A DNA stretch of 64,000 nt from Blasia pusilla (Eukaryota): NCBI GenBank assembly GCA_050084515.1, contig CM114271.1, positions 40,610,001 through 40,674,000 on the forward strand, given 5' to 3'. This document shows, piece by piece, positions 29,624 through 64,000 of this stretch. Position 1 is the stretch's first letter; every line of letters begins with the position of its first letter. A program made the translations under genes and the position numbers. The notes beneath the pieces were generated by a model, which saw only the letters and a list, made by a program, of their open reading frames with translations, did no database searches and was not told where the DNA came from.

Positions 29624-30530
29624 CTAGATGTAATCAAAACATTTTTTATTTCTGTATAGCTATTCTATACATTCTCATAACCATTTATGGCTGTGTTCTA
29701 GATCATAGAGTCAATTGAAAACATTGAATTTTTATAGCCCAATTGAAATCTTGTGAGTTTATCCTTTTTTCACCACAATTTTTTTTTTATCTAGACAACA
29801 TGGATTATGGGTATGTATAGCCACAATTACTTCCACTTGAGACATGCCGACTCTTGTTTGGTTTGCTCATTCTAGATTGTTCTATCTATCCATTTGTTAT
29901 TAAGTCATGGGGATATCAGTAGCGATGTGTCACAATTGTTCAAACTTTGTCGCCTCTTGTGCATTTACTTGAGTGGATTTTAAATGACCATATCCAACTT
30001 GGTGGTGTGGTGTAGCTTTATATAGTTTCTGCTCTCTTATCTCAAAATTGAATGATGGCACTTTTTGAATACCTAAATGCGTTTTAAAGGAAACCCCCTT
30101 GTCAGCTTATAACGCTATGTTGAAGCAGTGATTAAGACAGACATAATTTCAATGTCTCACGTCTTCACTCCTTCTGTATGTTGTTGTATAGTGCAATGAT
30201 GACCATTGTACAACCTTAGGTTGAATTTTGTTTTATATGATTATGCAGCGAGGCCTACATTCAATTTGTCAACGAACACCTTTGTTTTTCTTTCCATTTC
30301 CTCGGATGGTCACAAGCAGAAACCACGGCTCTAGTTGTTCCCTCATCCGGTTGTCGCGTTTACAAATTATGGACTAGGTATGTATACTCCACAATCACAA
30401 TGACTTCAAAGTTTTGCTTAATGCTTGGTAATCTATGGAATTTTATGAAGCAAGAATTTACCACATATGGTGCAACTGAATAGCATCCCCCGGGGTATTC
30501 GCCGGGCATGAATACCTGCGGTCCATCATG

Positions 30531-36500: not shown

Positions 36501-37899
36501 GGGGCAGATGAAGTCTGTCTTGGGGCTTGAGGTGATCTTACTTGTGGCTACATAAGTAAACTTAGTGACGCGCCTAAGTCGAATACGAGAGCTACCCAAT
36601 AGTAGTATGAATTGTAGACCAGGTAAACAAGTGTGATGTTTACAGGAATGAGCGAGAAAAGTCTAAGGTTGCATACTTAGTTAGCTTATTTGATAGGTTA
36701 GTTCTTCGGAACGAGTCCAGGCTTATCAAAGAGGAGAGGCTAATAATTCTAAGTGGTGCAAAGCGAAAAGTGTAGACTAAGAAGAATTGCGGGTTAGCCA
36801 CCAGAACGCAATTCAATGTCAAGGGGTAGGCTGCCCAGGAAACTTGACATAACAAAGGTTTGCGTTGATGAGGGCATCAACCTCTAAAGAGGGGTGAGTG
36901 TCGCGACTGTCATGACCAAACGAGTGCCAAGCGGAACATCGGAACATTAGCGGGCTCACGCTAAGATGGTTTGCACGTTGGAGTAGTCTCGAAGAAGAGA
37001 CAAGAGACGAGACGCGAGCGAGGCTTCGCGTTTCAAATGTTGTGGTCACGACCAAGAAACCTGGACCAAATGCGGAATAAGACTTGAAAGGATTTGAGTC
37101 TAGAAAGTGGGTGCCAAAAGGAAGAATCGGGATTTGGAACGCCACTAGCGTTTGAGAGTTTTCGACTGTATTTATAACCATAACTTTTAGTGCCAAGATG
37201 CGTTTGGATTAAAAAAGGGTGCGTTGGAAGGCTTATGGAAAGCCAATTCAAACGTACTAAAGATCTTTGCAAACGCATGAGCACCGGCTGAGAAACAACC
37301 CAGAAACGATTGTAAGTAGAGTTGGGTTGAGGGCCACAATGAAGGGTCCGACCCTCCTTTTCCAAAGGGGGGCGGTTATTGGAGAACCCAGAAGTACTAG
37401 TAAGGGGGAAGGTCTCCGAGAGTGCTTGGAACTCGAACCCCACTTTGGGCACCATGGGGCGGCTCAAGGGCATGGAACGGATCGAGAGTTTGGGGTTGGG
37501 TTGGAAAACCTGAACCAAGTCTACGGAGGAAATTTTAGACATCCCTCTTGGATTTCACCCCGCGACTCAATTACTTGGATCTCGGTTTGGAACTCGCACG
37601 AGGTCCGTTGAACAGTTGGGATCCCTAGGCGCGCAAGTGCCGTTTTAGGTTCCTCGACTAATCAGGAAGTCTATTCCAAGTCTTGAAGGACTTGCCATGT
37701 TTTGGAAACTAGGAATTAAGGAAGGTTGAGCTTGATGAGACGCCGAGTTGAGAACTCGGTGGGTTGGAACGCTGGTTGGCCCAGACCCGACTAACGAGAG
37801 TGTGTGTTTGGGTGCAGATCGGCGATGAGATCGTGTCCTACTGAACGTATGCTTCCGCAACATTAAAGATTGGCGTTCAAGGAGAGTAGGGGCGCGACA
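30531..37899 (+). mobile_element. Full-length Ty3/gypsy chromovirus LTR retrotransposon (pseudogenised)
   Basis: 5' LTR 30531-31528 and 3' LTR 36899-37899 (TG..CA). TSD TCATG on both sides. PBS TGGTATCAGAGC (tRNA-iMet) at 31531-31542. PPT AAAGAGGGGTGAG just before 36899. Confidence 0.96.
31678..36195 (+). pseudogene. gag-pol of the chromovirus: gag, CCHC knuckle, protease, RT, RNase H, integrase, chromodomain; several stops and frameshifts
   Basis: CYNCGEPGHLAKVC, LLVDTGASHSF, YIDDILIYS, FEVHTDASDFA, CVTCQ, IVSDRDPKFTS, PQTDGQTE, GPY, FEVETILRSRRRANKYEYLVKWK..ATW. In-frame stops at 34160-34162 and 35716-35718; frameshift near 35000. Confidence 0.93.
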
Positions 37900-37904
37900 T
37901 CATG

Positions 37905-40380
37905 TGTCATAAATCAATCTCTGAAATAAAAGTGTGAGTGTAGACCAAATGAAGACCATGCCTTGCACTTCTCCACATTCCTTGGTTGATCAACACGTGC
38001 CAACTGAGCATCAAAGTGTCAGAATTTAGGGATAACTACATCTCCAAGACATACAATATGATTATTGTCCGCAAATAAAAGGGAAATACAATCAAGAAAG
38101 GCCGACCTCCATTATATAGAGAAATTTTTAGTAATAAGCTTATGCAAATGGGGCACCACCGAGGAAATCTCATATACAACTACATTTGGAGAACTCCAAA
38201 ACCATAACCTCCTCTTCAAACCTACCATTGTCGCGACCCTCATAACCAAAGAGCACCAAGTAGGCGCCAAGCAAAATATCAGAACTCAAGGGAACTCACG
38301 TTACGAGGTTTGCGCTTTGGAGAGGCGTTTGGAAAAGAGGAATTGCGGGTTAGCTACCAGAACGCGATTCAATGTTAAGGGGTCGGCTTCCCAGAACTTA
38401 ACATTAATAAGGTTTGCGTTGAAAAGGAAATCAACCTTCTAAGGAGGGGTGAGTGTCGCGACCCTCATAACCAAACAACACCAAATAGGCGCCAAGCGAA
38501 ACATTACAACTCAAGGGAACTCACGCTGCGAGGTTTGCGCTTTGGAGAGGCGTTTGGAAAAGTCTCTTGGAAAAGTCTAAGAGAAGAAACGCGAAACAGA
38601 GTTGTGCGTTTCATGCGTTAGTGGTCGCGACCAGGAAACTTAGACCAAAAGCGAGCCAAGACTTGAGATGAGTTGAGTGTGGGGAGGTTGGTTGCCAAAG
38701 AGGTGAGAACCAGTTTGGAACACGACTAGCGTTTGGGAGAATCTGACTGTGTTTAGGACCATAACGTTGAGCTCCAAGATGCGTTTGGGACAAGTAAGGG
38801 CGCGTTGGAAATCTGATCTTAAGACACTTCCGACCCACCAAAGATCTCAGCAAACGCATAAGTACAGGCTGAGATATTGGCCAAAAACGATTGAGAGAGC
38901 AATCGGGTTGAGGGCCAATTGGAGAGGCTCGGGTGTCTTTCCCTAAATGTAGGGGGCCCCTGGAGATCCCCAGAAGTACTAGTAAGGGAGGAGTCCCTCG
39001 GAGATGTCTCGAGAAACGAGTCCCCACTTTGGGCGCCAAACGACGTTTCAGAGGCACGGGATGGAACGGGAGTTTGGCGTGGGAACTCGAAACCCAAACC
39101 TGATCCAAGGGAGTGGACTTTATACGCCACACTTGGATTCCAACCCGAGATTCACTTCATGCAAGTCTCGATGAGGAACTCATTGGATTTCCATCGGACA
39201 GTTGGAACCGCTAGGCGCGAAACGCCGTTTCAGGTTCCTGAACCGCCCATAAAGTCTGTCCCAAGTCTTTCGAGATTTGCCCGTGTTGTAAACCGCGAAA
39301 CTAGGAAGGTTGAGCTTGATGAGAGTCCGAGACGAGAACTCGGAAAGTAATCCCGCTGATTGATCCAAGACCTGACTAACCAAAGTGCGTGTTTGGATGC
39401 AGATCAGCGTTGAGAGCGTGACCTACTGAACGCACGCCTCCGCAACAAACAAGATTAACGTTCAAGGAGAGTAGGCGCACGACAACCATGGTGCAAATAG
39501 AGGGCAAAAGGGGCCCCACTAAAAGCTCACACAAAAGAGATGAGGCTTGTAACGGGGCCATTTGCACCCTTCACCTCAGAGAAGATGATTGCACGAGACA
39601 CTAGGTTGACGGTATTCTCAACATCTACTTGTTAAACCACCCTCTCTGAATGTATATCAAACAAAGACCTCAAACCTAGTGTGACAGTTTGACGATTGGT
39701 TGGGATGGCCATTCCAAATTGATGCAAATAGAGGTGTGACTAGAAGGCCTCACGGCGTTGCAAAGAAATAGTGCTTTTCACCAACCTCAAAGTAACTATG
39801 ACGTTCGGACAAATCTCTCTAGCCCTTAGACAAGAGCCAAGAGTAACTCTGTCCTCAATACCAAGGCCATTGGTGCTAGAAGTCTCCATGGAGCTACGTG
39901 AGAGGCAACTTGTAGCAACTTGGAGAAGCCATTGGAAAATTCTTTGGGGGAAAAATCCTAAACATGTTCTTACACCATGCGAAAGAAACCTCTAAAAAGC
40001 AAGCTGTAGAGATGGTCCAAGTGCCTGTGCAAAGAGAGTTGAGTTTAAGCAAAGAACTATGTGAGGATAGAAGTTGACCAAAATGTCAATCCTTGGGCAA
40101 GGATGTAGCCTCCTAAGGACATGGGTAGTATCAATAGAGAGAGGGTGAAGAGGTAGCGCTACTCATGAGTACTCCCAAGCATGTCTTAGTGTCATATAAC
40201 ATCACAACGTGGGTGCTCCAAGGTCATCTCGGGGGAAACCAAGTGTAGTGCTTCCTTTGGATGCAAGCCGCAAACTCGCTCTCAGTAGACTCCTAATCAC
40301 ATGTACGAAACTACTTCAATCGAGCCAAAGTCCACCTATGGCCGGTCTTCCTACCTCGAGTATAGCACAGACATCAACGT
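37905..40380 (-). mobile_element. Old CRE-clade non-LTR retrotransposon RT relic, interrupted by the 38229-39484 insertion
   Basis: Minus-strand peptides RLVKSTISLQRREAF*SHLYLHQ(F)G, LRSLFDIHSERVV*QVDVENTVNLVSRAIIF, then across the insertion DFLGGAPFA, FADNNHIV and QLARV..NVEKCKAW follow the order of RT subdomains 2-7. Confidence 0.65.
38229..39484 (+). mobile_element. Internally deleted LTR element: ~105 bp of 5' LTR + 3' UTR/PPT + complete 3' LTR
   Basis: TGTCGCGACCC at 38229 and again at 38454. The spacer is homologous to 36781-36898 and ends in AAGGAGGGGTGAG (PPT). TSD ACCAT at 38224-38228 and 39485-39489. Confidence 0.9.
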
Positions 40381-41407: not shown

Positions 41408-42622
41408 ATGGGCAATATGTGTTTCTGCGTGGCGAAGGTCAGAACGTCCGTCGTGGGTTGTTCTGTCGGGCTTTCAATGTCGTCCCTGAGAACCTTTAAC
41501 AATATAAACACCGCATTTGTGTTTCCAGGATCCTATCCTGTTGTTCGGAAAAATAACTCCTTTCGTGCGTTTAGAGTGGACAATTCGCTTGCAGCGATGC
41601 CTTCTGTGGATTGTGCAACAGTGCTGGGGATGAGACCCTTAGTTGTGACCAGTATTAATCAAATAATAAAGAGGCGCACCGTTGAAAGGTTTCAATTCAC
41701 TAAAGGCGGATGTTTGAAGCACGGATTGGTGAAGATTAGAGGGAAAAATTCGCTTAAAAAGAATTCTGTCCTCACTACCAATGGTCCACCCGGTCTTTCT
41801 CTTGAAACGAGTTCTGGCCAGGTTTCTGGGGATGGGGGCCAGGACGAAGATGGAGGAACGGGATCTCCATTTCCTCGAGCTGGGAACTCCCCATCCCCCC
41901 GTGCAGGGAGTGGCCACATCAAGGACGTGAACGTGACCGGCGGCGATTCTACGCAAGTTGCGATGATGGCGGAATTGGAAGATGCCCTCGGTTTCCCCCT
42001 GGGACAAGACCCTCAATCTCCCTCTCCGAAACCTTTGGTTATTGTAATAAGTGGTCCGAGTGGCGTGGGAAAGGACGCAGTTATCAAGCACCTGCAGCAT
42101 GCCCGACGAGATATACACTTCGTCGTAACGGCCACCACGAGGATGATGAGGCCCGGTGAGGTTGATGGTGTGGACTATTTTTTCATGAGCAAAACAGAGT
42201 TTCAGGAGATGATTGAGAATCAAGAACTCTTAGAACATGCTATTGTGTATGGAGATTACAAGGGGATTCCAAAGCAGCAAGTGCGAGAGTGTATAAACCA
42301 GGGTATGGACGTCGTCTTGAGGGTGGACGTTCAAGGAGCTGCAACTGTACGTTCAATTCTCGGGTCTGAAGCGGTGTTCATATTTCTCGTTGCGGAGAGT
42401 GAAGTGGCACTTGCCAAAAGGCTTATCGAACGGAAAACTGAAACTATGGATAAGCTGCTTGTGAGAGTAGCCACTGCCCGAGAAGAACTAACACGAATGG
42501 AAGAATTCGATTACGTGGTAGTGAACGCTGAAGGATATCTCGACAATACTGTTTCTCTTATATGCTCAATCATTGACGCGGAGAAGGCGAGGGTGAAACC
42601 CAAAGCCGCTCAGCTCCTGTAG
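41408..42622 (+). CDS. GK3: Guanylate kinase, organellar (plastid/mitochondrial GK3/V2 type), uninterrupted ORF
   Basis: P-loop ISGPSGVGKD, FVVTATTR.MRPGEVDGVDYFF, LLEHAIVYGDYKGIP, VLRVDVQGA, FDYVVVN. Long N-terminal transit-like extension. True start may be 41477 or 41597. Confidence 0.9.
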   Translation: MGNMCFCVAKVRTSVVGCSVGLSMSSLRTFNNINTAFVFPGSYPVVRKNNSFRAFRVDNSLAAMPSVDCATVLGMRPLVVTSINQIIKRRTVERFQFTKGGCLKHGLVKIRGKNSLKKNSVLTTNGPPGLSLETSSGQVSGDGGQDEDGGTGSPFPRAGNSPSPRAGSGHIKDVNVTGGDSTQVAMMAELEDALGFPLGQDPQSPSPKPLVIVISGPSGVGKDAVIKHLQHARRDIHFVVTATTRMMRPGEVDGVDYFFMSKTEFQEMIENQELLEHAIVYGDYKGIPKQQVRECINQGMDVVLRVDVQGAATVRSILGSEAVFIFLVAESEVALAKRLIERKTETMDKLLVRVATAREELTRMEEFDYVVVNAEGYLDNTVSLICSIIDAEKARVKPKAAQLL

Positions 42623-45453: not shown

Positions 45454-46401
45454 TTAGTCAGACGTGAATGGACGACGAGGCGAGCGATCCCCCATCACCT
45501 CCGCAAGACGTATCAATGCCAAGGCTTGTGCACGTTGTAAGGCCATTGAGATGCATTGCCAAAAATAAGTAATAACTATCGAGAGAGAAGGACTACGGGA
45601 AGGGGCAAGGTGATGATTCTCAAGGGAGTGGTGAGCACATGTTTTCAGGAAAGTATCAAAAGACACATGTAAATGACCGAATACTTCCACTGCAAAAGGA
45701 ATAAATCCATCATGTCTCACAACATAACTTAACTCCTTGATTCTTGCTGCAGTTTTGGCCGCCAAACCTTTGGTATGTGCGGCTCGACACACCAAGTCAG
45801 AATGTGTTGGATCAACAACCACCACATCACCTAGTGTCCCGAATCCACCTTGAGACATAACAAGATCCAGTCTCCGACGAGAGGTTGCTTGTGTGGTTGA
45901 AGGTAGGACGTGGAGTTGCTCTTGCCCAACGGTGTATCCTGCAGTACGAGCCACCGATGCTACCGCCTCTCTAATGACATCATGTGTAGCCGTTCGTTCT
46001 CCACCATGTGCACATCGGAGAATATGGATACCCTTGGCATCAATGGGATCCCCGCATACACAATTCGACACACCTAAGAGAGAAGGATGGGGAAGTCCAA
46101 GACGTAACCGCAAAGCTATCGAGAATATACTTCGAGGAAGACGAAATGGAAGAATAAGAGGATTTGCAGTAAGCCACGCCCCCGCTCCGGTACCCGCACA
46201 TGAACCTAGACGAGCTCGATTAGCGTCAGAGGATGCCTTGGAGAGAATGCTGGAAAAGTTGATTTCATGCAGATTCTCTGAGATATGCTCTTGAAGTCGA
46301 TCAAGCCCTTCCGTAATCAGTTGACTGAAAGGGGGTAGAATTGCTTGTGTAGCAAGAGGAAGAAGAGGTGGTGCAGATCTCAATTGTTGTTGAAATAACA
46401 A
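45454..46401 (-). mobile_element. 5'-truncated CRE-clade non-LTR retrotransposon: CCHC knuckle + restriction-like endonuclease
   Basis: 315 open codons: RARLGSCAGTGAGAWL, ALRLRLGLP, CVCG...HILRC, THD, RRRLDLV..GDVVVVDP, K..Y, FIPFAVEVFG, ISMALQRAQA. AATAAA lies in the AT-rich 3' tail near 45280. Confidence 0.8.
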
Positions 46402-47559
46402 GATAATCCAGCTCTCTAAAAGAGAATCGAGCTTTCTAATAAGAGCTTCCTTATAAGGAAGAAGTTTGGGAGTTTGTTATTGAGTCCATGAGAATGGACC
46501 TTGTTTATTAGCAATAATTTCCTAAAAATTTTACAAATTAAAATTAGTGTGGCGGCCCCAAAAGATGGGGCCTTAAACAACAATTAAACATAAATGTTCC
46601 AATTATATTTCACAAAAATATGAATAGAATCCGTGTAGAATTCGATACAAATAATTTAGAATTAATTTAACATGTTAAAAAAGAATGATCCCTACAAGAA
46701 TACAATATACATAGTCTACGTGTATATAGTCTATGAACACGATAGAAAAAATTTAAAATGATAAATCCATATAAAATAGAGGAATAAATTGAATTTGCCT
46801 TGATTTAATACATACACTTATGTAGAACCAAACATACACCAACAACAATGTGACAAGCACGCAATCTTTCAAGCCATCCATTATAGAGGAAGGTAAATAT
46901 GAGATTTAGATTCGAAACTTAACCCTATAGCTACTGAAACGAGATCTTACCCTACAAGGAAGTAATAAATGCAGACTATAATGCACAAACAACTAAATAC
47001 AAAAGAGGTAGTGAAGATGCCATACCCTCAACCAATCAAGGGAGAAGAGAGCAACTATGGCATTTACTTTCCTAACCTATCAAATATAGTGGACACAACT
47101 AAACCTAAATCAATATAGCACATATATATTAACCTCCATCTAGTCTTAACTTAATTTTATTTAAAATGGTAGCAATTAAGTATGATGGATACAAATATTA
47201 ATCCGTGTCATGTGAATATGGAGGTGATTCATTTTTTGAGCATGTGCTTGTGGCCAACCTTGAAATACGAGGACTAAGTTAAGGCCGTAACAAAACAATA
47301 TGACTTTACAAAAATCGTTGATTTATTTCTAACTAAAATGGGCCACCTTGCAAAAAATCTCTAGAAATCATTGAAATGGTATGAAAAAATTAAGACCCAA
47401 TAAGACAAAACATATGGCTTTCTCTACAAACTTTGCACAAAAGATAAACATGTATATGCTTGAACCTCATTTACAATGACTTGGATAAAAAGTTAATCTA
47501 TATTATTATTGGAGAGTGTCTTTTTATTTTGCAAAGTCCTCTCCTCTTGAAAACTTCAG

Positions 47560-49850: not shown

Positions 49851-52800
49851 CCGCCACGCCGGCGGTGGCAGTCGCCGTCATAGTCACCATCAACGGTCCG
49901 CCATCGATAGTCAACCGTCACCATCAACAATCCACCGTCCTCCGTCCATCGTCGGCTGCCTCTGCCGTCTATCGCTACTCAGAGTCGCGTTCGGCCGTTC
50001 TCCACCCTTGGTTGCCATTGCCGCCATTACAGAGTGGAGGGTCTTCCACAACGACCGTTGATTCTTTGACTTGCGCGGCTACCACATACTTTCTTTTGTC
50101 CGCCACCGTCATCGTAGTTTCGTCATCAACCAGTGATGGCAGGTGACCTCGGGTTATGGAGTTTGAGTTTTCATTTCATGCTGGTATGTTGTGATTGGTA
50201 GCCACTCGACGATGATCGAGTACTGTGCCATGACGCCCAAAGCCGCAACGCGTTGTCGATTGCCGCGCCGTGCCAGTCATGGCTGCATCGCACCATCTCG
50301 ATTGCGGAGCCGCTCCTTCACTAAGGAGCAGAGCATGGGAATTTATGATTGAGGAGGGTATGCCTTCGAGTGCCGCACCCCATTCCCGAGTGTCGTGCCG
50401 TTTTTAGCTGATCCGTGCCACCAATGCCGCACCGGACCGCTGGACCTGCACCGCACATCGAGGAGGTTTGAGCAGCGTCAGTATGAGAGGAGTACAACTT
50501 GCTGATTGGAGGAGTTATCGTCACGACCAAGTTGGGCTTGATATTTGCAATTGCCGAGGAGCAATATCGACATTATTGTCAGGTTACCCATTCTGGTCTC
50601 TTACCCTGTAGGTGTGAGGGATTTCCGGGTATTCGGAAGTTATTTGGGATATTGGGTTTTGTACTGATGCTGAGAGCATTGATGATGTATGGGTTTAGGG
50701 GACATAGACCTATGTGGGATGTCCAGAGTTGAGGATGGTCTTTCGATGAGACGATAGATCAGTTGATTTGCCGCACCACGCCGCTTGTTGCCGCATAGCA
50801 CACGTCTCAATGAGAGAGGGTAGATTGAGTGCCGCATGTTTAGTTTGAGTGATTGAAGGATTACTCGCAAGATTGAGAGTGATCGTGTGAGAGGGGCACG
50901 AGGGTCATCACGGCGTCCTTTCATGATTTTGAGAGGCGAGGTAGTGGACCTGAAGGTAGCTCTGGAGGGTTTGCCCGGAGTGATACGAGGTTTCAAGGAT
51001 CTCCACGTGAGAGAATACATCGATCTCCTTCTATGTCATCTTCAGACAAGGGGGAGCGTGTAGAGGAGTGTGTTAGTGATCCACCGTACATATTGAGTGG
51101 TCCTACTAGTTGGGCGTACCAGATGGACGACTAGGATAGAGGACCGCGTAGGTTTTTGGATGTTGTAGGCACTAAAGAGCTACACGACTTCATTGCGGAG
51201 TTTAGGAGTCGGTGTGACTCATAACGGGCTAGGAACTCTAGAGAGTTCAACCCATTTACAGCATGGAACGGTATGTTCAAGCATTTAGAGGAGGCGCCCA
51301 TGGACGATTACCATGAGTTCTCCCATAGATATGCCCATGAGATTAAGGCATGGCGACTCTACTATGACTCACATTATGTGTCATGGACAGAGCCGTTTCG
51401 AGATGAGGAGGAGGATTCAGGAGAGGCTACTTCCTCTTCCACTAGTGATGTTTTAGGAGGGGTCACTTGCACTGGAGCAGTTGCACCGTCTAGTCGGGTT
51501 TTTTCCCAGGTTCAACACCGTGGTTGAGTTCTTCGCTGAGTTGAGGGCGAGCTACCAGGGGATACGGATGAAGAAGTTGCGGAGCATCCACGAATTCCAC
51601 AGGCGCCCGGGTGAGAGTTTGTGTGAGGCTTACACTCACTTGCAACGGTTGATCAATGTCACTCAAGGGGTGATAGAGGCTTAGGTTATCCAATCATGGT
51701 ACGCAATGTTGGATCGGACCCTGCGGACACGGGTGTGCGAGGGGGTGCTTCTTATGAACACCTTCCCTACATTGAGAGATGGTTTTAGGATCGCCGAGAA
51801 CATTGAGCGCAACATGGCGGAGGAGAGTGTAGCCACCATGGGTTCTGGGCGAGAGCAATCATGATTATCTACACCACTGGTGCATCAACGTGGACTCCGA
51901 GATAGGTTGAATGTGGCACCACGAGCTCAGGGAGGATACCGGAAGGCCGTGCCACAGAGACCTGCTCCTTTATATGCGGCTCAACAATAGCCGCCTACGA
52001 TTACTTGTTGGTCATGTGGCAGACCCCATCATCAACATGAAGGTCATGGACGTGTGCCTCAGCATGGATGAGGAGATGGTACTACACCAAGAGGTTATCA
52101 GTGTGACTATTTTCAGAGGTATGGTCACACATGCGCCAAGTGTTTCAATTTACACGCTCAATTATGTCCCAATTGAGGGCCAGAGAGGGCACCACAACGA
52201 GTAGCCGGTCCGGGTGGGCTAGAGATTGTGCACTTGGTGGTCCTGTTGGGGGACGAGGAGCTGGAGTTGCTCAACAGGATGGTGGAGCTGGACGTGGAGG
52301 AGGTAGAGTCCCACCACCTAGAGGCGTCGAGGAAGATACAACAGCTACAGGAGGAGATTGCCGCTATAGCATTGAGGTTACCCGATGCCGGATCCATGGT
52401 ATCGACATCATATGGAGGATCCTGGTTGGATGTGCGAGATTGCCCAAATGGAGGCCGCAAAAATTGTGACGCGTGGAGCCGCCGCAATTGTGACGTGGGG
52501 AGCAGCCGCAGCGTTGGATCCACAGCGAGCGGAAGCCAAGAAATAGACCAGGCTTTCTCAGTATTTCACGTTGTCCAAGGCGATGAGGACCCCATCGATG
52601 GGTCCTAATCAGAGTTCCCAGAGAGTTGGTGATGTTATTGGTGTGCATGCACAGAGGGCAATGGGAGAAATGAGTGGGACATCTCCTATTGATGATGCTC
52701 AAGAGGAGCATGTGTCGAGTACGATGTTGGGGGCGGCCTCGATGGTGTATCGTGCTCCGCTATTTTCTGCTTCCGATGTTATGACATTGGGAGGTACGCC

Positions 52801-53812
52801 CGCCGAGGTGTTCTAGCTGGCCGCTACGCTATATGAGCATGGAGTTGGAGTTCCTACATCACGTTCAGAGGTGATTGCAGAGGAGGTGATGGACCTGCCC
52901 TTGGAGCTGATGCTCGGGCCGTCCACGTCAGATTCATGGTAGGCTGCGACAACTAGGATGGCGGAGATGCCCGCTCGACCCGCGATAGAGCATGCCATGG
53001 CTTCTCCTCATGTTGTGTTATTGGATAACCGGGGAGAGGTTTTCTAGTTGGTGAGTCCCAGAGGTAAAGCTTTTAGTCCGCAGCGCGTCTTGTTGGATTC
53101 ATGATCAGGAGCGCAACCCCTGATGTTGGGGAAAGCGTCATTCAGAGGATTGGGCTTGACGAGAGCTGATATGGAGCGTTGTCCATTTCGGATACAGACA
53201 TCCTTGGGTGGAACGAGTACCACATAGTATATCACCCGACAGGAGGTCGTGGTGAGAATTTTCTCGGGACATCCTATGGATGAGTGCTTGGTGCAAACCA
53301 AGGTGATAGTGACTGACGTAGAGTCCTACAACGTCTTGGTTGGTGGAGTTGTGTTATATCCGATGGGGTTTTCCCTAGATTATTGGGAGGAATCAGCGTC
53401 CTACAGACCAGGATGGCAATTAGGTGATTGGCGCCTTAGCTCATTATCCGTTCGATTCACAGGTGCAGTGATCGAGCGACGGCCAAGAGAGATGGCGATC
53501 TTAACAACATTTAGCAGTGCCATCACTTGGCCTAGTGATTTGATTGAGGGACATGTCCAACCGGATAATACTCTTGTTCTTGACATTTCTATGGAGAGGA
53601 GTGTTATGGTAGCCGAATCAGTCCGTGGAGGAGAGGTGCCACTTTGGGGCTCGACTGAGGAGCTTTGGCGCTTAGCCACTGAGCATGTGCACATCCTGTG
53701 AAGCGAGACGTTTGCACTAGAGTGTGAAGGGTTAGAGGAACCCTAGGTAGCCAAGAGTTTTGCTATGACCCCTTTGGACACCACCCTGATTGTGTGGTGC
53801 ATCCCCGAGGAG

Positions 53813-54720
53813 AGTATTCGGGTGTTGGATCTCTTTGGAGGGATCAACACTGGGTTAGCTGCTGTTTTGCAGGCAAGAATACGCATGCAAAAATACCTAT
53901 ATGTGGAGATTGATGATGTTGCGAGGCGCGCTTCACTTCACCATGTGGCGCAGTTACGCCTCAATTTTCCCGACTTATTGTTTGCGTCCGCTGTCTAGGG
54001 ATACAAGAGTTTCCTACCAAGGGACATTTCATTGTTGGGGGCGCAGGACTTGGACCGGGTAGGGGCCATAGATTTGGTCATTGCTGGTTGGTCGTGTCAG
54101 GGCCAATCAAGTGCTGGACGAGGAAACTGATGCTGATTTTTTGAAACTTGCAGGAGCATCAGTTTCGTTCTCCAGCATACAATCTCGAGAATATGCCGAT
54201 TTTGGGTGATTTGAGGTCTCGCGTGGTGTAGATTGCACATCAAGTGCGCCCATGGATTGGCCGGTCAATTTTGTTGGATGCGGCGAGTGTGGGTTCACGA
54301 GCACATTGCCCGCATCTTTGGTGGACCAACTAGGTACCACACGAGGTGTTTCCGAGGGCATATGCCAAAATGGAGCGCCCCTCGGATTTTTTGGTGGATT
54401 CTATATTGGATCCGGGCCGTCTATCATAGGCAGTGAGGCTAGATGATCAACCGCCGTTGACTGTGGTCAACAGGATTGGCATGCCACAAGCAACCTTTCC
54501 CACATTGGTGAGTTTTCTCGCTTCCTATGCATTCAAGGAGGCCGTACCTAGCTTGGTTTGGGATGACCAGGAACAGAAGTTGGTGGAGCCCAACGCCGAT
54601 GAGTGAGAGCGAGCGATGGGATTCCCCACAAGAGTGACGGCAATACTGTCACTATCAGAGGCATCACGACGTCATGTCTTGGGTTAGGCGATGGACCTGA
54701 ACTGCTTGACATGGATTTTC
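53813..54720 (+). pseudogene. C5-cytosine DNA methyltransferase domain (DNMT3-like motif pattern) embedded in retrotransposon pol
   Basis: Motif I IRVLDLFGGI; II YVEID; III PRDI; IV DLVIAGWSCQG (Cys codon 54095-54097); VI YNLENMP; VIII DAASVGSRAHCPHLWWTN; IX E*ERAMGFP; X RRHVLG*AMDLNC. Motifs are in canonical order, with several stops and a small deletion/frameshift after motif IV. Confidence 0.88.
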
Positions 54721-57700
54721 AGCTTAGGAGTAGCTGAGCAACATGGTTTGAGGATGTGACAGATCACACCAGTTGCGTTGGTGATCCCCATGCCTACCGA
54801 GACGGTTATGGGAGGAGCTGGGGACGAGATCCGAGGAAATCGACACACCAAGGATGATCGGGAAAGACACCCTTGGACTTCTTGGGATGTTTTGCAGGTA
54901 TGTTAAGAGATGGTAGCCACAATATCCACTTTTGTAGTTGGATGCAAGGGAGCAGTCGAGTTTTGTTGTCCGAGACGGGGTTGCACCATAGCAACCACCG
55001 ACACCCGCGTCAGAGAGTCCTATTGTAGTCACGATGGAGACTTGGGAGACAGATATGGGCCCTAAGTTGACAGGAGGAGAGCGGCGCCGGATACACCAAT
55101 TCCTTAGGAGTTATAGGAGTTGTTTTGCATTTAGTATGCATGATTTGGGTACGCTGAAGGGTCCAGGGATCCGCATTGAGTTGTTGATTGACACGTCGTT
55201 CTTCCGACAATCCTATAGGTACAATGACATGGAGAGGGCTCTGATTCAGAGTAGGATCTAGGGCTTGGTTGGAGCAAGACTAGTGGAGATGTCTCATGGA
55301 GAGTATGCATTTGCCATTTTCATGCCCGCCAAGAAGGATGTGCATGGCAACTTGACGAATAGCCAGATGTGTGGAGATTATCGACCTATCAATCGGCAGA
55401 CGAAGTCCGATAGGTATGCCATGCCCACTCTTGAGGAGATCTTTGATGCTATTGGGCATTCAAAGGTCTTCAGTTTGTGAGATCTTCGAGCCGGATACCA
55501 TCAACTGCCTATCAGATTGGGTGATAGGCAGAAGATGGCATTTTGGGGCATCGATCCTCATGGGAAGGATTGCTTGAACCAATGGTGGTTCTTACCATTT
55601 GGGTTAAAGAACGCCCTGGATGAGTTTCAGAGGGTCATGGATAGGATCTTGGCAGGTCTCAATTTTGGTAGGTGTTATATTGATGACAACGTAGTTTTTA
55701 GCGCCACGGTTGAGGAGCATGAGCAATATCTAGAGGAGGTGTTTCGACCATTGCAGTTACATGGGCTGAAGCTACATCTAGGCAAGTGCAAGTTCTTCTA
55801 CGACCAAATTGAGTACTTGGGTCATACGATATACCCAGGGGGCCTTGGTGTGCAACAGACGAAGGTAGAGGCTATTTCACGCATTCCATGCCCTAGAGAT
55901 GTGAGTGGAGTTCGTGCATTCATGGGATTGGCGAACTTCTATCGACAATACGTCAAGGATTTCAGTTCAATTGTGAAGCCGCTAACCTTGCTGACCAACG
56001 TGGATTAGGAGTGGCACTGGGGGGATGAGCAGCAGAGAGCATTTTAGTTGCTCAAGGATAGATTGACCTTCGTGACCATATTGAGGAGACCGATCAGGGG
56101 GCGCCCTTTCCAATTGCATACCGATTGGAGCATGTTGGGGCTTGGAGCTGTGCTCATCTAGCATGACAATGATGGTAGAGAGTTTGTGGTGGCTTACGCT
56201 AGTCGCTCAAATAACGCTGCAAAGGCGAAGTATAGCTGGTATGAGGATGAGTGCTTGGCTCTAGTGTGGGTTGTCGCACATTTCAGATGTTATCTATTCG
56301 GAAATCACTTTATCATCATTACTAATCATCAACCACTTAAGTGGTTGATGGAGTCCGACAAGCTTATAGGGAAGCTTGCGAGGCAGGCTCTTTCCTTGCA
56401 GGAGTATGACTTCCAGGTGGTGCATAGATCTGGGATGCTCAACCAAGATGCATATGGTTTGAGCCATAACCCATGCTCGAGTCAACGAGATGCGACTGGA
56501 GCTCGTTGGCATGGTGAGAGTGATGAGGAGTTGGTGCCAGGATGGCATGCGTCAACCTATTTGGGCTTGTTGGCTATAGAGAGCAAGATTGTTCACACTT
56601 CGATGGCGAGGTCAGATCGAGAGGCTGGTGAGGAGACAACAGGTGGCCGAGACATTCACGACGATGGAGTGGTCTTGGAGAACCTGCGTAGTGGCAGCAT
56701 CGCAAGCACAGTGGATGCTAGAGAGCGGGATCGGATCTTACAGCGAGCCAGACGGCTCTGATGGGAGGGGACACATGTGTTGCGAGTGTGTGTAGTGCCT
56801 TATCCTTTGCAGAGAGCACGTTTGGTGCGTCATGCTCATGAGGAGTTGGATCATTTTGGAGTGAAGCGGACATACACCTTGCTCCAGATTCTGTATTGGT
56901 GGCGAGGGATGCAAATTGACGTTCAGTAGTTTGTTGCCAGATGCATGGTGTGTGATTGAGTCTGAGCATTTTTCAATGCTCCGACTCCACATTTGCATCC
57001 ACTTCCCATCATGGGTTTAGGTTAAAGATGGAGTTTGGATTTTGTAGGACCTTTGCCTTTGACAGAGCACCATAGTCGCTATGAGTTGGTGATGGTCAAG
57101 CACTTCTCGAAGTGGATAGAGTTGGTTGCATATTCGGGAAAAGCGAGTGAGGGAGTAGCGTGTGCCTTCCTAGATTGGATGCTAAGTTATTACAATGCAC
57201 CAGCGGAGGTGTTGACAGACAAAGGTACAGAGTTCCGTGGGGAGTTTCAGGCCTTGTGTGATTAGGCACTGATCGACCACCGCACTACTTCGCGAGATCA
57301 TCTTGAGGCGGATGGACTAGCGGAGCGGGTTGTGCAAATGGTGAAGAGAGGACTACGCAGGTATGACTTGCACAGAGGTCACCTAGGACATTGGGACCTC
57401 CAGTTGCCGTGGTTGGTGATGGGATACATATTCAGCAAGTAGACATCCTTAGCGTCGTTCTCACCGTACTTGCTTTTGTATGGCCGAGAGCCAGATTTAC
57501 GTGTGGCCATTCGTCGAGATGTTGAACCTTGATGACCTTGATGTATGGATGCGAGCATGTTCTTAGAGGGCTGAGTTGTTTTGGAGAGTGATGCCCATGG
57601 CGTTGAGAACTTGGCGATTGCGCAACATCGGGATACATTGAGGTATGCAACTATTCGGGGAGGTGGTTATCAACCTACTATCTAGAGGTTTCATCATGGA

Positions 57701-57922
57701 GATTATGTCTACTTATAGCAGACAGAACCCTCAACGTTGGATGTGATTGCAGGGCGAACCATTTTGAGAGTGCGTGAGGTTTTGCCATTCGATGTTCTCT
57801 TATTGGAGGGACGTGATGGTATGGTTTGGAAGGACCATGTGCATAACTGTGCGCCATGTCATCTTTTGAACATTGAAAATACAGTTGACCCGAGCTTAGC
57901 AGTAGTTCCTACCGGCTTGCAG

Positions 57923-58063
57923 TGTATGTTGGGTGGTTTTGCCTGTGGTGCAGCCACTATGCTAGTCTATGATGGATGTTCGAGAGGATGGCATATGGCA
58001 TGTTTGACGCTACCTCTCACTAGGGTTCTTTAAGGATGATGGATGTATCTTAGATGTACATAG
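57923..58063 (+). pseudogene. PHD finger (C4HC3) at the integrase C-terminus
   Basis: CMLGG..ATMLVYDGCSRGWHMACLTLPLTRVL*G*WMYLRC. The inverted copy gives CMLCG..MLVYDGCSR*WHMACLTPPLTRVLQGRWMCLRC. Confidence 0.8.
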
Positions 58064-58346
58064 CGTAGATAGTTCTATATTCTTACTTATGTTTGTGACA
58101 TGGATGACAAGAAGGCGACCAACGATAGGGCCACATGAGCACTTGGCCTTCTTGCTCTTAACATTTGAGAGATGTATGTCATGGTAGGTAGGGATAGATG
58201 GCTATCTGGAGTTAGAGGGACCTAACCACGAGCTAGGGGGGCGATTGGAGATATTTTGGTACTTCTTGTCTCGTTGTTTGGATGCCATGAGTTAGCATGG
58301 GATTGTGCGTGTGTTTAGTGATAGCGATGTGTATACGCACGACAGC

Positions 58347-61300
58347 TGTCACGTCTGTTGTACGCATACACATCGCTACACAACATACATCATTGTCACC
58401 AAACACACACACAAACACGCACAATCCCATGCCAATTCATGGCATCCAAACAACGAGACAAGAAGTACCAAAATATCTCCCCCCTAGTTGGTGTTTAGGT
58501 CCCTCTAACTCCACATAGCCATCTATCCCTACCTACCATGATATACATCTCTCGGACGCTAAGAGCAAGAAGGCCGAGTGCTCATGTGGCCCCATCATTA
58601 GTCGCCTTCTTGTCATCCATGTCACAGACCCAAGTTGGAATGTAGAACTATCTACTCTATGTACATCTGAGACACATCCATCGTCCTTGAAGAACCCTAG
58701 TGAGAGGTGGCGTCAAACATGCCATATGCCATCATCTCGAACATCCATCATAGACTAGCATAGTGGCTCCACCATAGGAGGAACCACACAACATACAACC
58801 CAAGCCTGTAGGAACTATTGCTAAGCTTGGATCAACTATATTGTCAATGTTTGGAAGATGACACGGCGCACAGTTACGCACATGGTCCTTCCAAACCATA
58901 CCATTGCGTCCCTCCAATAAGAGAATACCGGATGGCAAAACCTCACGCACTCTCAAGATGGTGCACCTTGCAATCACATCCAACATCGTGGGTGCCATCT
59001 GCTGCAAGTAGACATAGTATCCTTGATGAAACCTCCAGTTAATAGGTCGATAACCACCTCCCGGAATAGTCCCATACCTCAACGTATCCCCATGTTGCGC
59101 AATCGCCAAGTTCTCAAACACCATGGGCATCACTCTCCGAAACAACTCACCCCTCCGAGAACATGTTCGTATACATACATCAAGGTCATCAAGGTTCAAC
59201 ATCTCACCAACATCTTGACGAATGGCCGCAGGTAAATCTGGCTCTTGGCCACAAAGCAACAAGTACGGTGAGAAGGACGCTAAGGATGCCTGCCAGCTGA
59301 ATGTGTATCCCATCGCCAACCACGGCAAGTGAAGGTCCCAATCTCCTAGGTGACCTCTCTACAAGCCATACTTACGTAGTCCTCTCTTCACCGTCTGCAC
59401 AACTCGCTCCGCTAGTCCATCCGCCTCAATATGATCTCGCGAAGTAGTGCGGTGGTCGATCAGTGCCTAATCACACAAGGCTTGAAACTCCCCGCGGAAC
59501 TCTGTACCCTGGTTTGTCAACACCTCAGCTGGTGCACTATAATGACTCAACACTCAGTCTAGGAAGGCATACGCTACTCCCTCACTTGCTTTGTTAGGAA
59601 ATGAAACCAACTCTATCCACTTCGAGAAGTGCTCGACCATCACCAACACATAACGACTATGGCGCTCTGTCAAAGGCAAAGGTCCTGCAAAATTCATCTA
59701 TAACCTAAACCCATGATCGGAAGTGGATGCAACTATGGATTTGGAGCATTGAACGATGCTCGTACTTGATCACACATCATACATCTGGCAACAAAGTGCC
59801 GAACGTCAGACTGCATGTCTCGCCCCATCACTATTGAATTTGTAGCAAGATGTACGTCGCTTCACTCCAAAATGACCCAACTCCTCGTGGGCATGACTCA
59901 CCAAACGTGCTCTTTGCAAAGGATGAGGTACTACACGCACTCTACCATCCCCCCACACTCGTAACACATGTGTGCCTTCCCATCAGAACCGCCTGGCTCG
60001 TTGTAGGATCCGATCCTGCTCTCTAGCACCCATTGTGCTTGCAACGCTGCTAGTACGCAGGTACTTCAAGACCACTCCATCGTCGTGAATGTCTCGGCCA
60101 CCTGTTGTCTCCTCATCAGCCTCTGGATCTAAGGACTCTCCATCAGACCTCGCCATCGAAGTCTCAGCAATCTGGCTCTCCATAGCCAACAAGCCCAAAT
60201 AGGCTGATACATGCCATCTTGGCACCAACTCCTCATCACTCTCACCATGCCAACGATGTTGCGACCCTCATAACCAAACAACACCAAATACGCGCCAAGC
60301 GAAACATCAGAACTCAAAGGAACTCACGCCGCGAGGTTTGCGCTTTGGAGAGGCGTTTGGTAGAGTCTCTTGGAAAAGTCTAAGAGACGAAACGCGGAAC
60401 AGAGTTGTGCGTTTCATGCGTTAGTGGTCGCGACCAGGAAACCTAGACCAAACGCGAGCCGAGACTTGAGATGAGTTGAGTCTTGGAGGTTGGTTGCCAA
60501 AGAGGTGATAACCAGTTTGGAACATGACTAGCGTTTGGGAGAATCTGACTGTGTTTAGGACCATAACGTTGAGCTCCGAGATGCGTTTGGGACAACTAAG
60601 GGCGCGTTGGAAAGCTGATCTTGAGACGCTTCCAACGCACCAAAGATCTCAGCAAACGCATAAGTACAGGCTGAGATATTGGCCAAAAACGATTCAGAGA
60701 GCAATCGGGTTGAGGGCCAATTGGAGGGGCCCGGGTGTCTTTCCCTAAATGTAGGGGGCCCCCGGAGATCCCCAGAAGTACTAGTAAGGGGAGTACCTTC
60801 TCTGAGATGTCTCGGGAAACGAAACCCCACTTTGGGCGCCAAACGGCGTTTCAGAGGCACGGGATGAAACGGGAGTTTGGCGCGGAAACCCGAAACCCAA
60901 ACCTGATCCAAGGGAGTGGACTTTGTACGCCACACTTGGATTCCAACCCGAGATTCACTTCGTGCGAGTCTTGGTGAGGAACTCATTGGATGTTCATCGG
61001 ACAGTTGGAACCGCTAGGCGCGAAACGCCGTTTCAGGTTCCTGAACCGACCAGAAAGTCTATCCCAAGTCTTTCGAGGCTTGCCCGTGTTGGAAACCGCG
61101 AAACTAGGAAGGTTGAGCTTGAAGAGAGAGTCCGAGACGAGAACTCGGAAAGTAATCCCGCTGATTGATCCAAGACCCGACTAAATGAAGTGCGTGTTTG
61201 GATGCAGATCAGCGTTGAGAGCGTAACCTACTGAACGCACGCTTCCGCAACAAACAAGATTAACGTTCAAGGAGAGTAGGCGCACGACAAACGAGCTCTA

Positions 61301-62797
61301 GTCGTATCTCATTGACTCGGGCATGGGTTACGGCTCAAACCATGTGCATCGTGGTTGAGCATCCCAGTCTATGCACCATCTGGTAGTCGTACTCCTGCAA
61401 CAAAAGAGCCCACCTCGCAAGCTTCCCTATAAGCTTGTTGGACTCCATCAACCACTTAAGTGGTTGATGATCAGTAATGATGGTAAAGGGATTGGCAAAT
61501 AGATAACATCTAAAATGTGTGACAACCCACACTGATGCCAAGCACTCATCCTCATACGAGCTATACTTCGCCTCTACAGCATTGTTCAAGCGACTAGCGT
61601 AAGCCATCACGAACTCTCTACCATCATCATCATGTTGGGTGAGTATGGCTCCAAGCCCCAACGTGCTCCAATCGGTATGCAACTGGAAAGGACACCCCTT
61701 GATTGGTCTCCTCAATATGGGCAGGGACGTCAATCTGTCCTTGAGCATCTGAAATGCTCTCTCTTGCTCATCCTCCCAATGCCACTCCTTATCCACCTTG
61801 GTCATCAAGGTTAGCGGCTTCGCAATCAAACTGAAACCCTTGAGGTATTTTCGATAGAAGTTTGCCAATCCCAAGAATGCACCAACTCGATTCACATCTG
61901 TTGGGCGTGAAATAGCCTCTACCTTTGTCTGTTGCACACCAAGGCCCCCTGGGTATATTGTATGATCCAAGTACTCAATCTGGTCGTAGAATAACTTGCA
62001 CTTGCTTGGATGTAGCTTCAGCCCATGTAACTGCAATCGTCGAAACACCTCCTCTAGATGTCGCTCATGCTCCTCAACTGTGGCGCTAAACACTATGATA
62101 TCATCAATATAACACCTAACAAAATCGAGACCTACCAAGATCCTATCCATGATCCTCTGAAACTCAACCGGGGCGTTCTTTAACACGAATGGTAAGAACC
62201 GCCACTCGTACAAACAATCCTTCCTATAAGCATCGATGCCCCAAAATGCCATCTTCTGCATGTCTTCTAATCTGATAGGCAACTGATGGTATCCGGCTCG
62301 CAATCCAATGAACTAAAGACCTTTGCATGGCCAATCACATCAAAGATCTCCTCAGGGGTGGATATGGCATACCTATCAGACTTTGTTTGCTGATTGATAG
62401 GTCGGTAATCTCCACACATTCGCCTATCCGTCTAGTTGCCATGCACATCCTTCTTGGCAAGCATGATAGTGGCAAATGCATACTCTCCATGCGACATCTC
62501 CACTAGTCCTGCTCCAACCAAGTCCAGGCTCCTACTCTAAATCAGAGCCCTCTCCATGTCACTATACTTGTAGGATCGTCGAAAGATCAGAGTGTCACTC
62601 GACAACTCAATGCGGATCCCTCGACCATTCAACGTACCCAAATCATGCATACTAAATGCAAAACAGCTCCTATAACTCCTAAGGATCTGGTGTATCCGAC
62701 ACCGCTCTCATCCTGTCAACTTAGGGCCCATATCAGGCTCCCAAGTCTCCACCATGACTACGATAGGACTCTCCGGCGTGGATGTCGGTGGTTGCTA
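58347..62797 (-). mobile_element. Second, inverted copy of the PHD/DNMT gypsy family (RT-RH-IN-PHD-3' LTR); interrupted by a solo LTR and cut off just before the DNMT region
   Basis: ORFs 61335-62303 (RT/RH: CYIDDIIVFS, FQLHTDWS), 59983-60228 and 58732-59328 are collinear homologues of 54990-58345. LTR at 58347-58543 ends in CGTGACA on the minus strand. Confidence 0.9.
60257..61289 (+). mobile_element. Solo LTR, same subfamily as 38454-39484, inserted in the inverted gypsy pol
   Basis: TGTTGCGACCCTCATAACC...GCACGACA. TSD AACGA at 60252-60256 and 61290-61294. The host pol resumes on both sides. Confidence 0.92.
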
Positions 62798-63543
62798 CGT
62801 AACCATCCTTTGTTAGTCATAGTTAAGTTAGAATCTATGACATGAAGCGCATAAGTGAGAAAGAATCAACCAAAAAGAGAAAAAGACAAGATACATGAGA
62901 TAAAGATGAGAGTGGGGCCATAGGTTGGTGAAAAGGAAGATAAGGATGAGGTTGAGGAAGATGAGGTTGGGACATTAGACTCCAAAGGAGATCCTTTCAT
63001 GCTATGAGAGTAGGACATGTGGCATAAGGATAGGTAGAACTAATTTGTCTTCATTGTACCTATCTCTAAGTATATAAAGGAAGAGGAGAGGCCTTGAGAG
63101 CATTCTACCTTTGAGCAATTCTAGAGTGGTTCCGTGAGCTAGAGAGCTACAATGGTATCATAGCAAGGTTGATCTTTCAACGAGAGTGGATTATCCCTCT
63201 TGGAAGTATGACCAAGTAATGTTTTTTAACACTCGATGTATAGTCCATGTGGTTTGTCAACCTAAGATAGCATATAGAGAGTTTATGGTGAGGAAGTTTG
63301 GCCAAGAGTATTATGATAAAGTCATTACGTCAACACTGCCTTTTATAGTCCCTATTGTGCAAAATTGGCAAGTATATATCTTGATCTTATATTAGAGTGA
63401 TATTAAAGGGTTAGGGAAAAGTCGGAGCGATCATGGAAGAAACTTTGAGGGATATGATTCGTGAATTGAGAGAGTTGAGAGTTGTATTTGATTAAAGTCA
63501 AAACCAAGTCCAAGAATTAGCGCAAGAAGTTGCTTTGGTCAGA

Positions 63544-63580
<37 letters not shown>

Positions 63581-63859
63581 CCAATAGGTGGGATGGAGAC
63601 GGAAACCACGAGTGTCGTGACTTCTGGGAAGAGTAACGAAACCTTAAGGGCACGAGCATTGGAGGCCCAAGTAGCACAAAGAGTGATGGAGATGAATGCT
63701 CAAGCATCATTGATATTGAAAACGACAAAGGCATGCAAGGTAGAACCGTACAAAGGAAGTCGATCCATGGGGGTATTAGAGGGTTGGATCACTCGAATGG
63801 AAATCCATTTATCCCTTTTCAACATTGATGATCATATTGTAGGGATTGTTGCAATTTGA
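62798..63859 (+). mobile_element. 5' end of another LTR retrotransposon: ~350-bp LTR, PBS, gag fragment
   Basis: LTR (C/T)GTAACC...GCTACA at 62798-63151. PBS TGGTATCATAGC at 63153-63164. Gag-like KVEPYKGSRSMGVLEGWITRMEIHL. (GA)n tract at ~63549-63574. Confidence 0.7.
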
Positions 63860-64000
63860 GCAAAACCTTTGACAAATCTTTGATAGAATCCTGTAAATCC
63901 TAGAAAACTCTTCAATTGAGTTTGATCTTCATGTGCACTCCATTTTTGGATCGCTTATACCTTCTCACTCATCACTTGAATACCTTCTGCGCTTACTCGA
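63851..64000 (-). mobile_element. Gypsy RT/RNase H connection fragment on the minus strand
   Basis: RVSAEGIQVMSEKV*AIQKW..QLKSFLGFTGFYQRFVKGFAQIA. Confidence 0.75.

Follow-up and report, generated by a model that had tools for sequence, protein, structure and literature searches.

A decayed Ty3/gypsy-type retrotransposon copy in a liverwort genome and its family with a DNMT3-like domain in front of a putatively leaky stop codon

DNA methyltransferases (DNMTs) encoded by retrotransposons were described in 2018 by de Mendoza et al. (PMC5890265), who found a DNMT3 within a gypsy polyprotein of Klebsormidium nitens and, in Symbiodinium, DNMTs carried by DIRS and LINE elements. The K. nitens element, KnitGypsy-Dnmt3, described there alongside DIRS-like repeats, is the closest known element to the one reported here: both contain a non-rearranged DNMT3-type domain inside a streptophyte gypsy-type retrotransposon. 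The element under study lies in a stretch of 64,000 nucleotides of the Blasia pusilla assembly GCA_050084515.1 (contig CM114271.1, positions 40,610,001 to 40,674,000, forward strand), hereafter the window, in which an earlier reading of the letters alone, hereafter the original prediction, had seen a C5-cytosine DNMT inside the pol of a dead long terminal repeat (LTR) retrotransposon. The window very probably contains a dead, 3'-truncated Ty3/gypsy-type copy in a liverwort genome, from a family whose first open reading frame (ORF1) encodes Gag, protease and DNMT3 and ends at a UAG in a leaky context. The kind of element, Gypsy-DNMT3, is known; it is now found in a land plant, and what is added is the leaky-stop junction, a PHD finger and two layouts. 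The interest lies in the family, the window copy being a relic.

Unlike KnitGypsy-Dnmt3, the present element has a land plant, a liverwort, as its host; the sequences from liverworts form a clade of their own apart from the K. nitens sequence, and no mention of a leaky-stop junction or an integrase PHD finger was met in the part of PMC5890265 that was covered. A K. nitens protein, GAQ93235.1 (P0139 in our set of relatives), which has a CCHC knuckle upstream of the DNMT, matches the C half of the window domain (E 1.4e-18, 36% identity); it is not confirmed as one of the published KnitGypsy-Dnmt3 copies. SymbioDIRS-Dnmt3 and SymbioLINE-Dnmt (PMC5890265) are likewise retrotransposons with a DNMT in the polyprotein, and the DIRS domains are of the DNMT3 type with CG methylation in yeast, but their backbones have a tyrosine recombinase (DIRS) or an endonuclease (LINE), their host lineage is another, and they were described as independent acquisitions. 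"Streptophytes (Gypsy-DNMT3)" are named, with citation of de Mendoza et al., in PMC12344493 and in a preprint on EpiLTRs (bioRxiv 10.64898/2026.05.21.726589). EpiLTRs also are LTR elements that combine a DNA methyltransferase with chromatin-reader domains, but their DNMT is sister to DNMT4, lies at the 3' end of pol and is accompanied by an adenine methyltransferase and a chromodomain; their authors regard the acquisition as distinct from that of the streptophyte Gypsy-DNMT3. In full-text literature searches, with supplements and subscription papers outside their scope, no paper came up that reports such an element from a liverwort or any other land plant. In the parts of their texts covered, Schmid et al. 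(2018) list five Marchantia DNA methyltransferases, none of them transposon-borne, Yaari et al. (2019) mention no transposon-borne DNMT, and the survey of plant LTR elements by Neumann et al. (2019) mentions no DNMT-bearing element.

Three-frame translation of 53700-54800 revealed the C5-methyltransferase motifs I, II, IV, VI, VIII, IX and X on the + strand at about 53.8 to 54.7 kb, in canonical order and thus unlike the rearranged order of the plant DRM enzymes. The N half (53747-54130, frame of 53702) contains IRVLDLFGGINTGL (motif I), YVEID (II) and DLVIAGWSCQG (IV); the C half (54127-54735), which a -1 shift puts into the frame of 53701 (54127-54750), contains NLENMP (VI), LLDAASVGSRAHCPHLWWTN (VIII), ERAMGFP (IX) and RRHVLG*AMD (X). 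Alignment to relatives gives the domain an extent of about 53790-54735. The original prediction had placed these seven motifs, in this order and on the same strand, between the protease and the reverse transcriptase (RT) at 53813-54720; all seven were recovered and the coordinates are right. It had also called the copy dead, and indeed, the domain has one in-frame stop in the N half (53996) and six in the C half (54142, 54229, 54331, 54427, 54604 and 54685), has lost about 12 codons plus one base (~37 nt, frameshifting) between motifs IV and VI at ~54124-54127, as judged from the alignment with relatives, and has broken catalytic residues (Pro-Cys to Ser-Cys, ENV to ENM, HRAR to HCPH). The window copy yields no functional protein. 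When the two halves were compared with the PDB by phmmer, the N half matched DNMT3A/B/C best and collinearly (E 0.014), with 34 of the 36 listed matches being C5-methyltransferases, and the C half gave eight matches, all collinear and all to DNMT3A (E 1.1-1.8), in whose alignments motifs VIII to X resemble those of DNMT3A. By sequence comparison, the DNMT match of the window exceeds chance.

The nature of the domain was assessed further by profile and fold searches, which were run on relatives and not on the dead window copy. A family profile (A1) made from 19 full-length environmental domains matched, in the PDB, DNMT3A with an E value of 9.7e-22, DNMT3C with 2.8e-20 and DNMT3B with ~3e-19; the next matches were tobacco DRM (5.9e-11), M.HhaI (5.8e-9) and DRM2 (9e-8). 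With these values, a DRM-type and a bacterial Dcm-type domain were rejected. The AlphaFold2 model of a relative, P0029 (mean pLDDT 92.3), had as its best Foldseek matches in the PDB only DNMT3A/B/C catalytic domains (E 8e-21 to 7e-17; the rows listed are ranks 1-47 with gaps, all DNMT3A/B/C), with target TM values of 0.38-0.81, and of at least 0.72 against chains comprising the catalytic domain only. Judged from profile and modelled fold, the domain of the family is DNMT3-like, in line with the resemblance proposed by the original prediction. Like the animal enzymes DNMT3A/3B/3C, its best matches in both searches, it has the motif order of DNMT3; in contrast to host DNMT3 and DRM, it shares its chain with neither a PWWP nor an ADD domain and forms part of a Gag-protease polyprotein. 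Of the 142 relatives covering motif IV, 138 keep the catalytic Cys; the ENV Glu is conserved in 159 of 165 relatives, and the motif VIII arginines (RxR) are conserved in 173 and 178 of 187.

We next asked whether the domain belongs to the transposon proper. Searched among proteins of polyprotein length, the N half retrieved five Marchantia polymorpha proteins of 1034-1333 aa (E 2.7e-37 to 4.8e-32, 62-66% identity). A Marchantia protein, P0001, is collinear with positions 51138-54897 of the window (gag, protease, DNMT; 36-48% identity by tblastn), and one of the five, P0005, continues into reverse transcriptase. Four of the five reach 28.9-36.0 bits with the Pfam methyltransferase family PF00145 (cut-off 22), which is also scored in P0012, P0024, P0040 and P0074. 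The C half matched 680 protein clusters at an E value of <=1e-3, 337 at <=1e-10 and 13 at <=1e-30 (HMMER, 1.84 billion representatives), with a Calypogeia fissa protein as the best match (58% identity). Domain segments were then placed on 205 related proteins (P0001-P0160 and P0281-P0325), the majority of which come from environmental assemblies. A layout of (CCHC)-PR-DNMT-RT-RH-INT(-PHD), with PR for protease, RH for RNase H and INT for integrase, was found in 39 of them (type A), and RT-RH-DNMT-INT-PHD in 76 (type B, chlorophyte and many environmental proteins, e.g., P0024, P0073 and P0316); the other 90 are fragments to which neither layout can be assigned. Among the matches listed, the named hosts of type A are Marchantia, K. 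nitens (GAQ93235.1) and three Closterium strains, and those of type B are Scenedesmus and Chlamydomonas eustigma. The type B relative P0291 has an additional precomputed G-patch domain (PF01585).

An apparently intact relative was found on a 9.3-kb metagenome contig (L001), one of six loci obtained with P0304 as the query; a scan of the metagenomes with P0012 as the query found no relative. ORF1 of L001 (976-5085, 1369 codons) encodes a protease and a PF00145 domain with 51.1 bits, and ORF2 (5086-8229, 1047 codons) encodes RT, RNase H, integrase and a PHD finger recognised by Pfam. Both are in the same frame and are separated by one TAG, and the same junction is present in two further loci, L002 and L003. 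The six bases after the TAG are CAG TTA in L001 and L002, CAA TCA in L003 and CAA CCA in both window copies (the second copy, inverted, is described below). All five junctions fit UAG_CAR_YYA, for which the chance fit of six bases is 1/512; the letters vary between the relatives and the pattern is kept. In tobamoviruses, UAG_CAR_YYA serves as the signal for type I read-through (Firth and Brierley 2012, PMC3542737). Since a TAG followed by CAR YYA is common to the relatives and to both copies, the TAG at 54989 is, as read from these alignments, the native end of ORF1 and not a product of decay; the feature (TAG, then CAA CCA) occupies 54989-54997 on the + strand. As in tobamovirus type I read-through and in gammaretrovirus gag-pol, an in-frame UAG lies between a structural/protease ORF and a polymerase ORF, but here the system is a plant retrotransposon family and the likeness is one of sequence.

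The PHD finger (PF00628) is present in L001, L003, P0024 and P0309. The nearest solved relatives of that of L001 are the PHD fingers of CHD4, PHF12, PHF21A, KAT6A, ATXR5, KDM5A/B, DPF3 and UHRF1, many of which bind the H3 tail unmethylated at K4. Like chromoviruses, the element fuses a chromatin-reader domain to the C terminus of the integrase, but the reader is a PHD finger instead of a chromodomain. A PHD finger in Chlamyvir elements was dropped as a parallel, the papers checked describing, in the parts covered, chromodomains and no PHD finger.

In the window, the ORF1 region upstream of the domain comprises a gag region with the remnant of a CCHC knuckle (51138-52413, +; residues 9-423 of P0001 by tblastn, 36-47% identity, two frames, six in-frame stops) and an aspartic protease (52988-53602, +; residues 644-830 of P0309 and the protease segment of P0001 by tblastn). 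The active site of the latter, LLDS*SGAQP at ~53085, is broken within LLDSG by a 6-nt insertion with a stop (~53099-53104) that is absent from 1296 of 2120 genomic reads. Read in the frames that match best, ORF1 is interrupted by 23 stops and changes frame at least three times. ORF2 (54992-58057, +), which was delimited by Pfam and by tblastn to P0309 and P0024, lies in one frame with 20 stops and contains, by Pfam, RT (55361-55831), RNase H (56018-56407) and integrase (56810-57292), all on the + strand; a C-terminal PHD finger remnant follows at ~57923-58057 (+), to which the tblastn matches with P0309 and P0024, including their Pfam PHD finger, extend. In this one read-through frame, the E values are 6.8e-21 for RVT_1, 1.6e-30 for RT_RNaseH, 4.4e-12 for Integrase_H2C2 and 4.4e-9 for rve. 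The Ty3/gypsy order of protease, RT, RNase H and integrase is present, with a gypsy-type RT_RNaseH and an H2C2 integrase. The observed/expected CpG ratio is 0.68 in the element and 0.90 in two host genes. The 3.2 kb upstream of the element recurs nowhere else in the window, and self-comparison and a search for primer binding site (PBS) motifs found no 5' boundary there; the 3' end is lost at a palindrome. Two labels of the original prediction need qualification. "LTR retrotransposon" is a label that rests here on the type of RT and integrase, since no LTR pair, PBS or target-site duplication (TSD) was found for this copy. "Inside pol" is right in that the domain is integral to a Ty3/gypsy-type element, but the domain closes an ORF1 of Gag, protease and DNMT in front of the leaky-stop motif and does not lie inside a continuous pol.

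The state of the family in the host was studied with ~1.97 Gb of raw genomic reads mapped to 51100-58300 at >=80% likeness. The depth, which sums both orientations and is not scaled to single-copy depth, so that it gives no copy number, was 1760-2060 over gag (930 in one bin), 2300-2400 over the protease, 1300-2724 in the four DNMT bins and 2480-3560 over ORF2. Only 608 of 144,250 reads were >=99% alike to the window copy, and 113,633 were under 90% alike. At 54123, 1088 reads continue with other letters, and the other copies are thus not deleted there. In three RNA sequencing runs, 5845, 5990 and 6201 reads were found across the whole element, and first mates on the - strand exceeded those on the + strand about tenfold over its whole length (e.g., 155 versus 15 in the bin 55197-55437 of one run), with 25.6-98.8 (-) versus 0-7 (+) in the DNMT bins. 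In stranded libraries, such a predominance of first mates on the - strand indicates sense transcripts; most RNA reads are under 90% alike to the window copy and thus stem from others. In the host, the family is large, old and still transcribed, and the DNMT is a regular part of it. A joint skipping 1071 nt (55155-56227, with GA..GC ends, not a canonical intron) was seen in all three RNA runs, with 5, 13 and 5 reads, and in no genomic read; it would remove most of the RT and may represent either a transcript with a deletion or an artefact of the libraries.

Next, the phylogenetic position of host and element was examined. A single-exon guanylate kinase gene in the window (41408-42619) has its best matches in Marchantia (536 bits, full length), Calypogeia (450 bits) and Riccia. 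In a tree of 26 sequences, picked by hand from the 120 matches listed, plus the window gene, the latter falls into a liverwort-only clade of seven rows with a support of 97 (Marchantia, two Riccia, Calypogeia and two further sequences) and joins neither the group of Marchantia and Riccia nor that of Calypogeia. By this placement, the host is a liverwort distinct from these species and a land plant, as the original prediction had supposed. A DNMT tree (quick IQ-TREE) was calculated from 75 rows, i.e., the C half of the window, all 14 named proteins, all type A rows covering >=290 of the 340 domain positions, the first 22 type B rows at the same coverage and the first 10 unassigned rows, leaving out 131 other proteins. 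With a support of 100, the window clusters with Calypogeia, six Marchantia rows and one environmental row, in a clade that lies within a set of 24 type A rows (support 99). The type B rows make up a single clade (support 100), and the K. nitens row groups with two environmental rows and adjoins the type B clade; Closterium rows also stand elsewhere, and the deep branches are weakly supported. An RT-RNase H tree of 29 rows, with the chromovirus of the same window as sole outgroup, has the two window copies as sisters (support 100) and type B as one clade (support 91) nested in a grade of type A; the RT-RNase H of that chromovirus sits on a long branch, distant from the DNMT element. Among these DNMT-bearing relatives, the topology would fit a single lineage in which the DNMT moved its position once.

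These trees also bear on how the elements reached liverworts. A horizontal transfer from an alga or another organism, in place of vertical descent from streptophyte algae, is the alternative that survives best, although we consider it unlikely. In the DNMT tree, neither Klebsormidium nor Closterium is sister to the liverwort clade, which nests, with the support of 99 for the 24 rows, among environmental sequences to which no host is assigned, and no moss, fern or seed-plant protein is among the named matches listed, which are a minority of all matches. However, the environmental neighbours may be bryophytes themselves, and one clade with a support of 100 spans three liverworts of different orders (Marchantia, Calypogeia and the host of the window), which fits presence of the element in a common ancestor.

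What could a retrotransposon gain from such an arrangement? If the UAG is read through at a low rate, as is somewhat probable, the methyltransferase would be produced in excess, at Gag-like levels, and enter the particles. Gag-PR-DNMT would then be the major product, and the read-through fusion Gag-PR-DNMT-RT-RNase H-integrase-PHD would be the minor one. The protease might free the methyltransferase, which might then methylate new cDNA of the element itself or a fresh insertion, as has been proposed for this class by de Mendoza et al. (PMC5890265); of the conceivable roles this is the most parsimonious, and we regard it as plausible, with doubt slightly prevailing. With the same reserve, the PHD finger of the integrase, being closest to readers of the unmodified H3 tail, may direct insertion away from active promoters, by analogy with the chromodomain of chromoviruses.

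Several observations weigh against this reading of the locus and its family. To our knowledge, methyltransferase activity has never been demonstrated for the Gypsy-DNMT3 class. The residue preceding the catalytic Cys is Pro in 61 but Glu in 68 of the 142 relatives, and the read-through is something we infer from the junction pattern; some relatives (P0040, P0309 and P0313) have one continuous ORF at its place. The PDB matches of both window halves are weak by themselves, and Pfam found no PF00145 match in the two halves or in the three read-through frames of 50000-58300; the scoring of this family, to which the original prediction had looked, was obtained with four of the five Marchantia relatives but not with the window copy. 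Direct repeats of >=60 nt are absent from 44-64 kb, so that no LTR pair was found for this copy, nor was a PBS or TSD recognised for it, and L001 has no terminal direct repeat within its 9.3 kb. Finally, the nearest environmental relatives have no assigned host, and the genomic depths are unscaled. When the Klebsormidium domain was expressed in yeast, no methylation was seen, a result its authors judged inconclusive (PMC5890265).

Some of these points could be explained if the domain of the living family did not methylate element DNA at all and instead acted on RNA (e.g., packaged genomic RNA), on host chromatin in trans or as a non-catalytic DNA-binding domain. The negative result in yeast and the exchange of Pro for Glu would agree with such a role, and the position in ORF1 next to Gag would place the domain beside RNA. 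However, 92-97% of the relatives keep the catalytic Cys, the Glu of ENV and both RxR arginines, which argues for catalysis, the nearest folds are those of the DNA enzymes DNMT3A/B/C, and the DNMT3 domains of the Symbiodinium DIRS elements do methylate CG in yeast (PMC5890265). We therefore hold such a role to be improbable, even a little more so than a horizontal transfer. That a host DNMT3 gene was captured just once, or left a pseudogene fragment, between pieces of retrotransposons, to which the lack of LTRs or a TSD delimiting one element and the lack of the DNMT in the second window copy might point, can be put aside almost entirely, since Gag-PR-DNMT(-RT) is collinear in the Marchantia proteins and its layout recurs in 39 related proteins, L001 and L003 bear the DNMT in ORF1, the genomic depth over the DNMT is comparable to that over gag and protease, and the second copy has its start precisely at the stop of ORF1, which makes it a truncation and not a DNMT-less form; the methyltransferase is integral to the element, as originally predicted.

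This second copy is partial and inverted, comprises ORF2 only (58415-62797, -) and is interrupted at 60256-61290 by an LTR-like insert of ~1 kb. Its homology begins exactly at the ORF1 TAG (62797), hence without the DNMT, and a decayed PHD finger is recognisable in it too. The + and - copies differ at 384 of 3298 aligned sites (11.6%), of which 267 are transitions, and they have at least two stops in common (56759 and 57263). Together they form a 3.3-kb palindrome with arms at 54989-58312 and 58415-62797 and a centre near 58363 (within 58245-58480); the arms are 86-88% alike overall and 97% alike in the 66 nt adjoining the 102-nt spacer. Both copies end ~250 nt beyond the PHD finger, at the centre of the palindrome, and these shared ends suggest that a copy already dead was duplicated in inverted orientation. 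At 58244, other letters follow in many genomic and RNA reads, and the junction of the palindrome is therefore particular to this locus.

The window contains further mobile elements. An apparently intact Ty3/gypsy chromovirus (30530-37899) has long open gag-PR-RT-RH-INT-chromodomain frames (32069-36195) between direct repeats of ~1.0-1.4 kb (30530-31529 and 36898-37899) that are 84-99% alike. Two more diverged copies of its LTR-like sequence are present at 38611-39484 (70-83% alike at 38.7-39.5 kb) and at 60256-61290, the latter being the one that interrupts the minus-strand ORF2 of the DNMT element. A 340-codon open frame (45454-46476, -) lies between the guanylate kinase gene and the DNMT element. 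At the end of the window, a short fragment of another gypsy-type RT (63805-63999, -) adjoins AT-rich sequence, with a (GA)n microsatellite at ~63540-63590.

Since plants silence transposons mainly by cytosine methylation, it is paradoxical that a transposon should bring a de novo methyltransferase of its own. The purpose of such an enzyme has been open since it was first described in algae, where activity of the streptophyte enzyme could not be demonstrated. What we propose, tentatively and with more doubt than confidence, is one old gypsy-type lineage, ranging from chlorophytes to liverworts, with a DNMT3 and a PHD finger that reads the H3 tail, in which the streptophyte and liverwort enzyme would be made in Gag-like amounts in front of a leaky UAG, and which is transcribed and abundant in liverworts and has open frames in M. 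polymorpha. A consequence for annotation is that some "DNMT3-like" or "hypothetical" bryophyte genes are transposon ORFs. If the elements live in liverworts, including the transformable M. polymorpha, the question moves to an organism with knock-outs, methylome maps and data on reprogramming during the life cycle, in which the position of the DNMT before the leaky stop would offer a handle on enzyme dosage and the PHD finger of the integrase a handle on insertion sites. If the lineage is indeed as old in green plants as proposed, why a transposon methylates DNA would become directly testable in a land plant, and such elements may have shaped, or exchanged genes with, the de novo methylation of plants.

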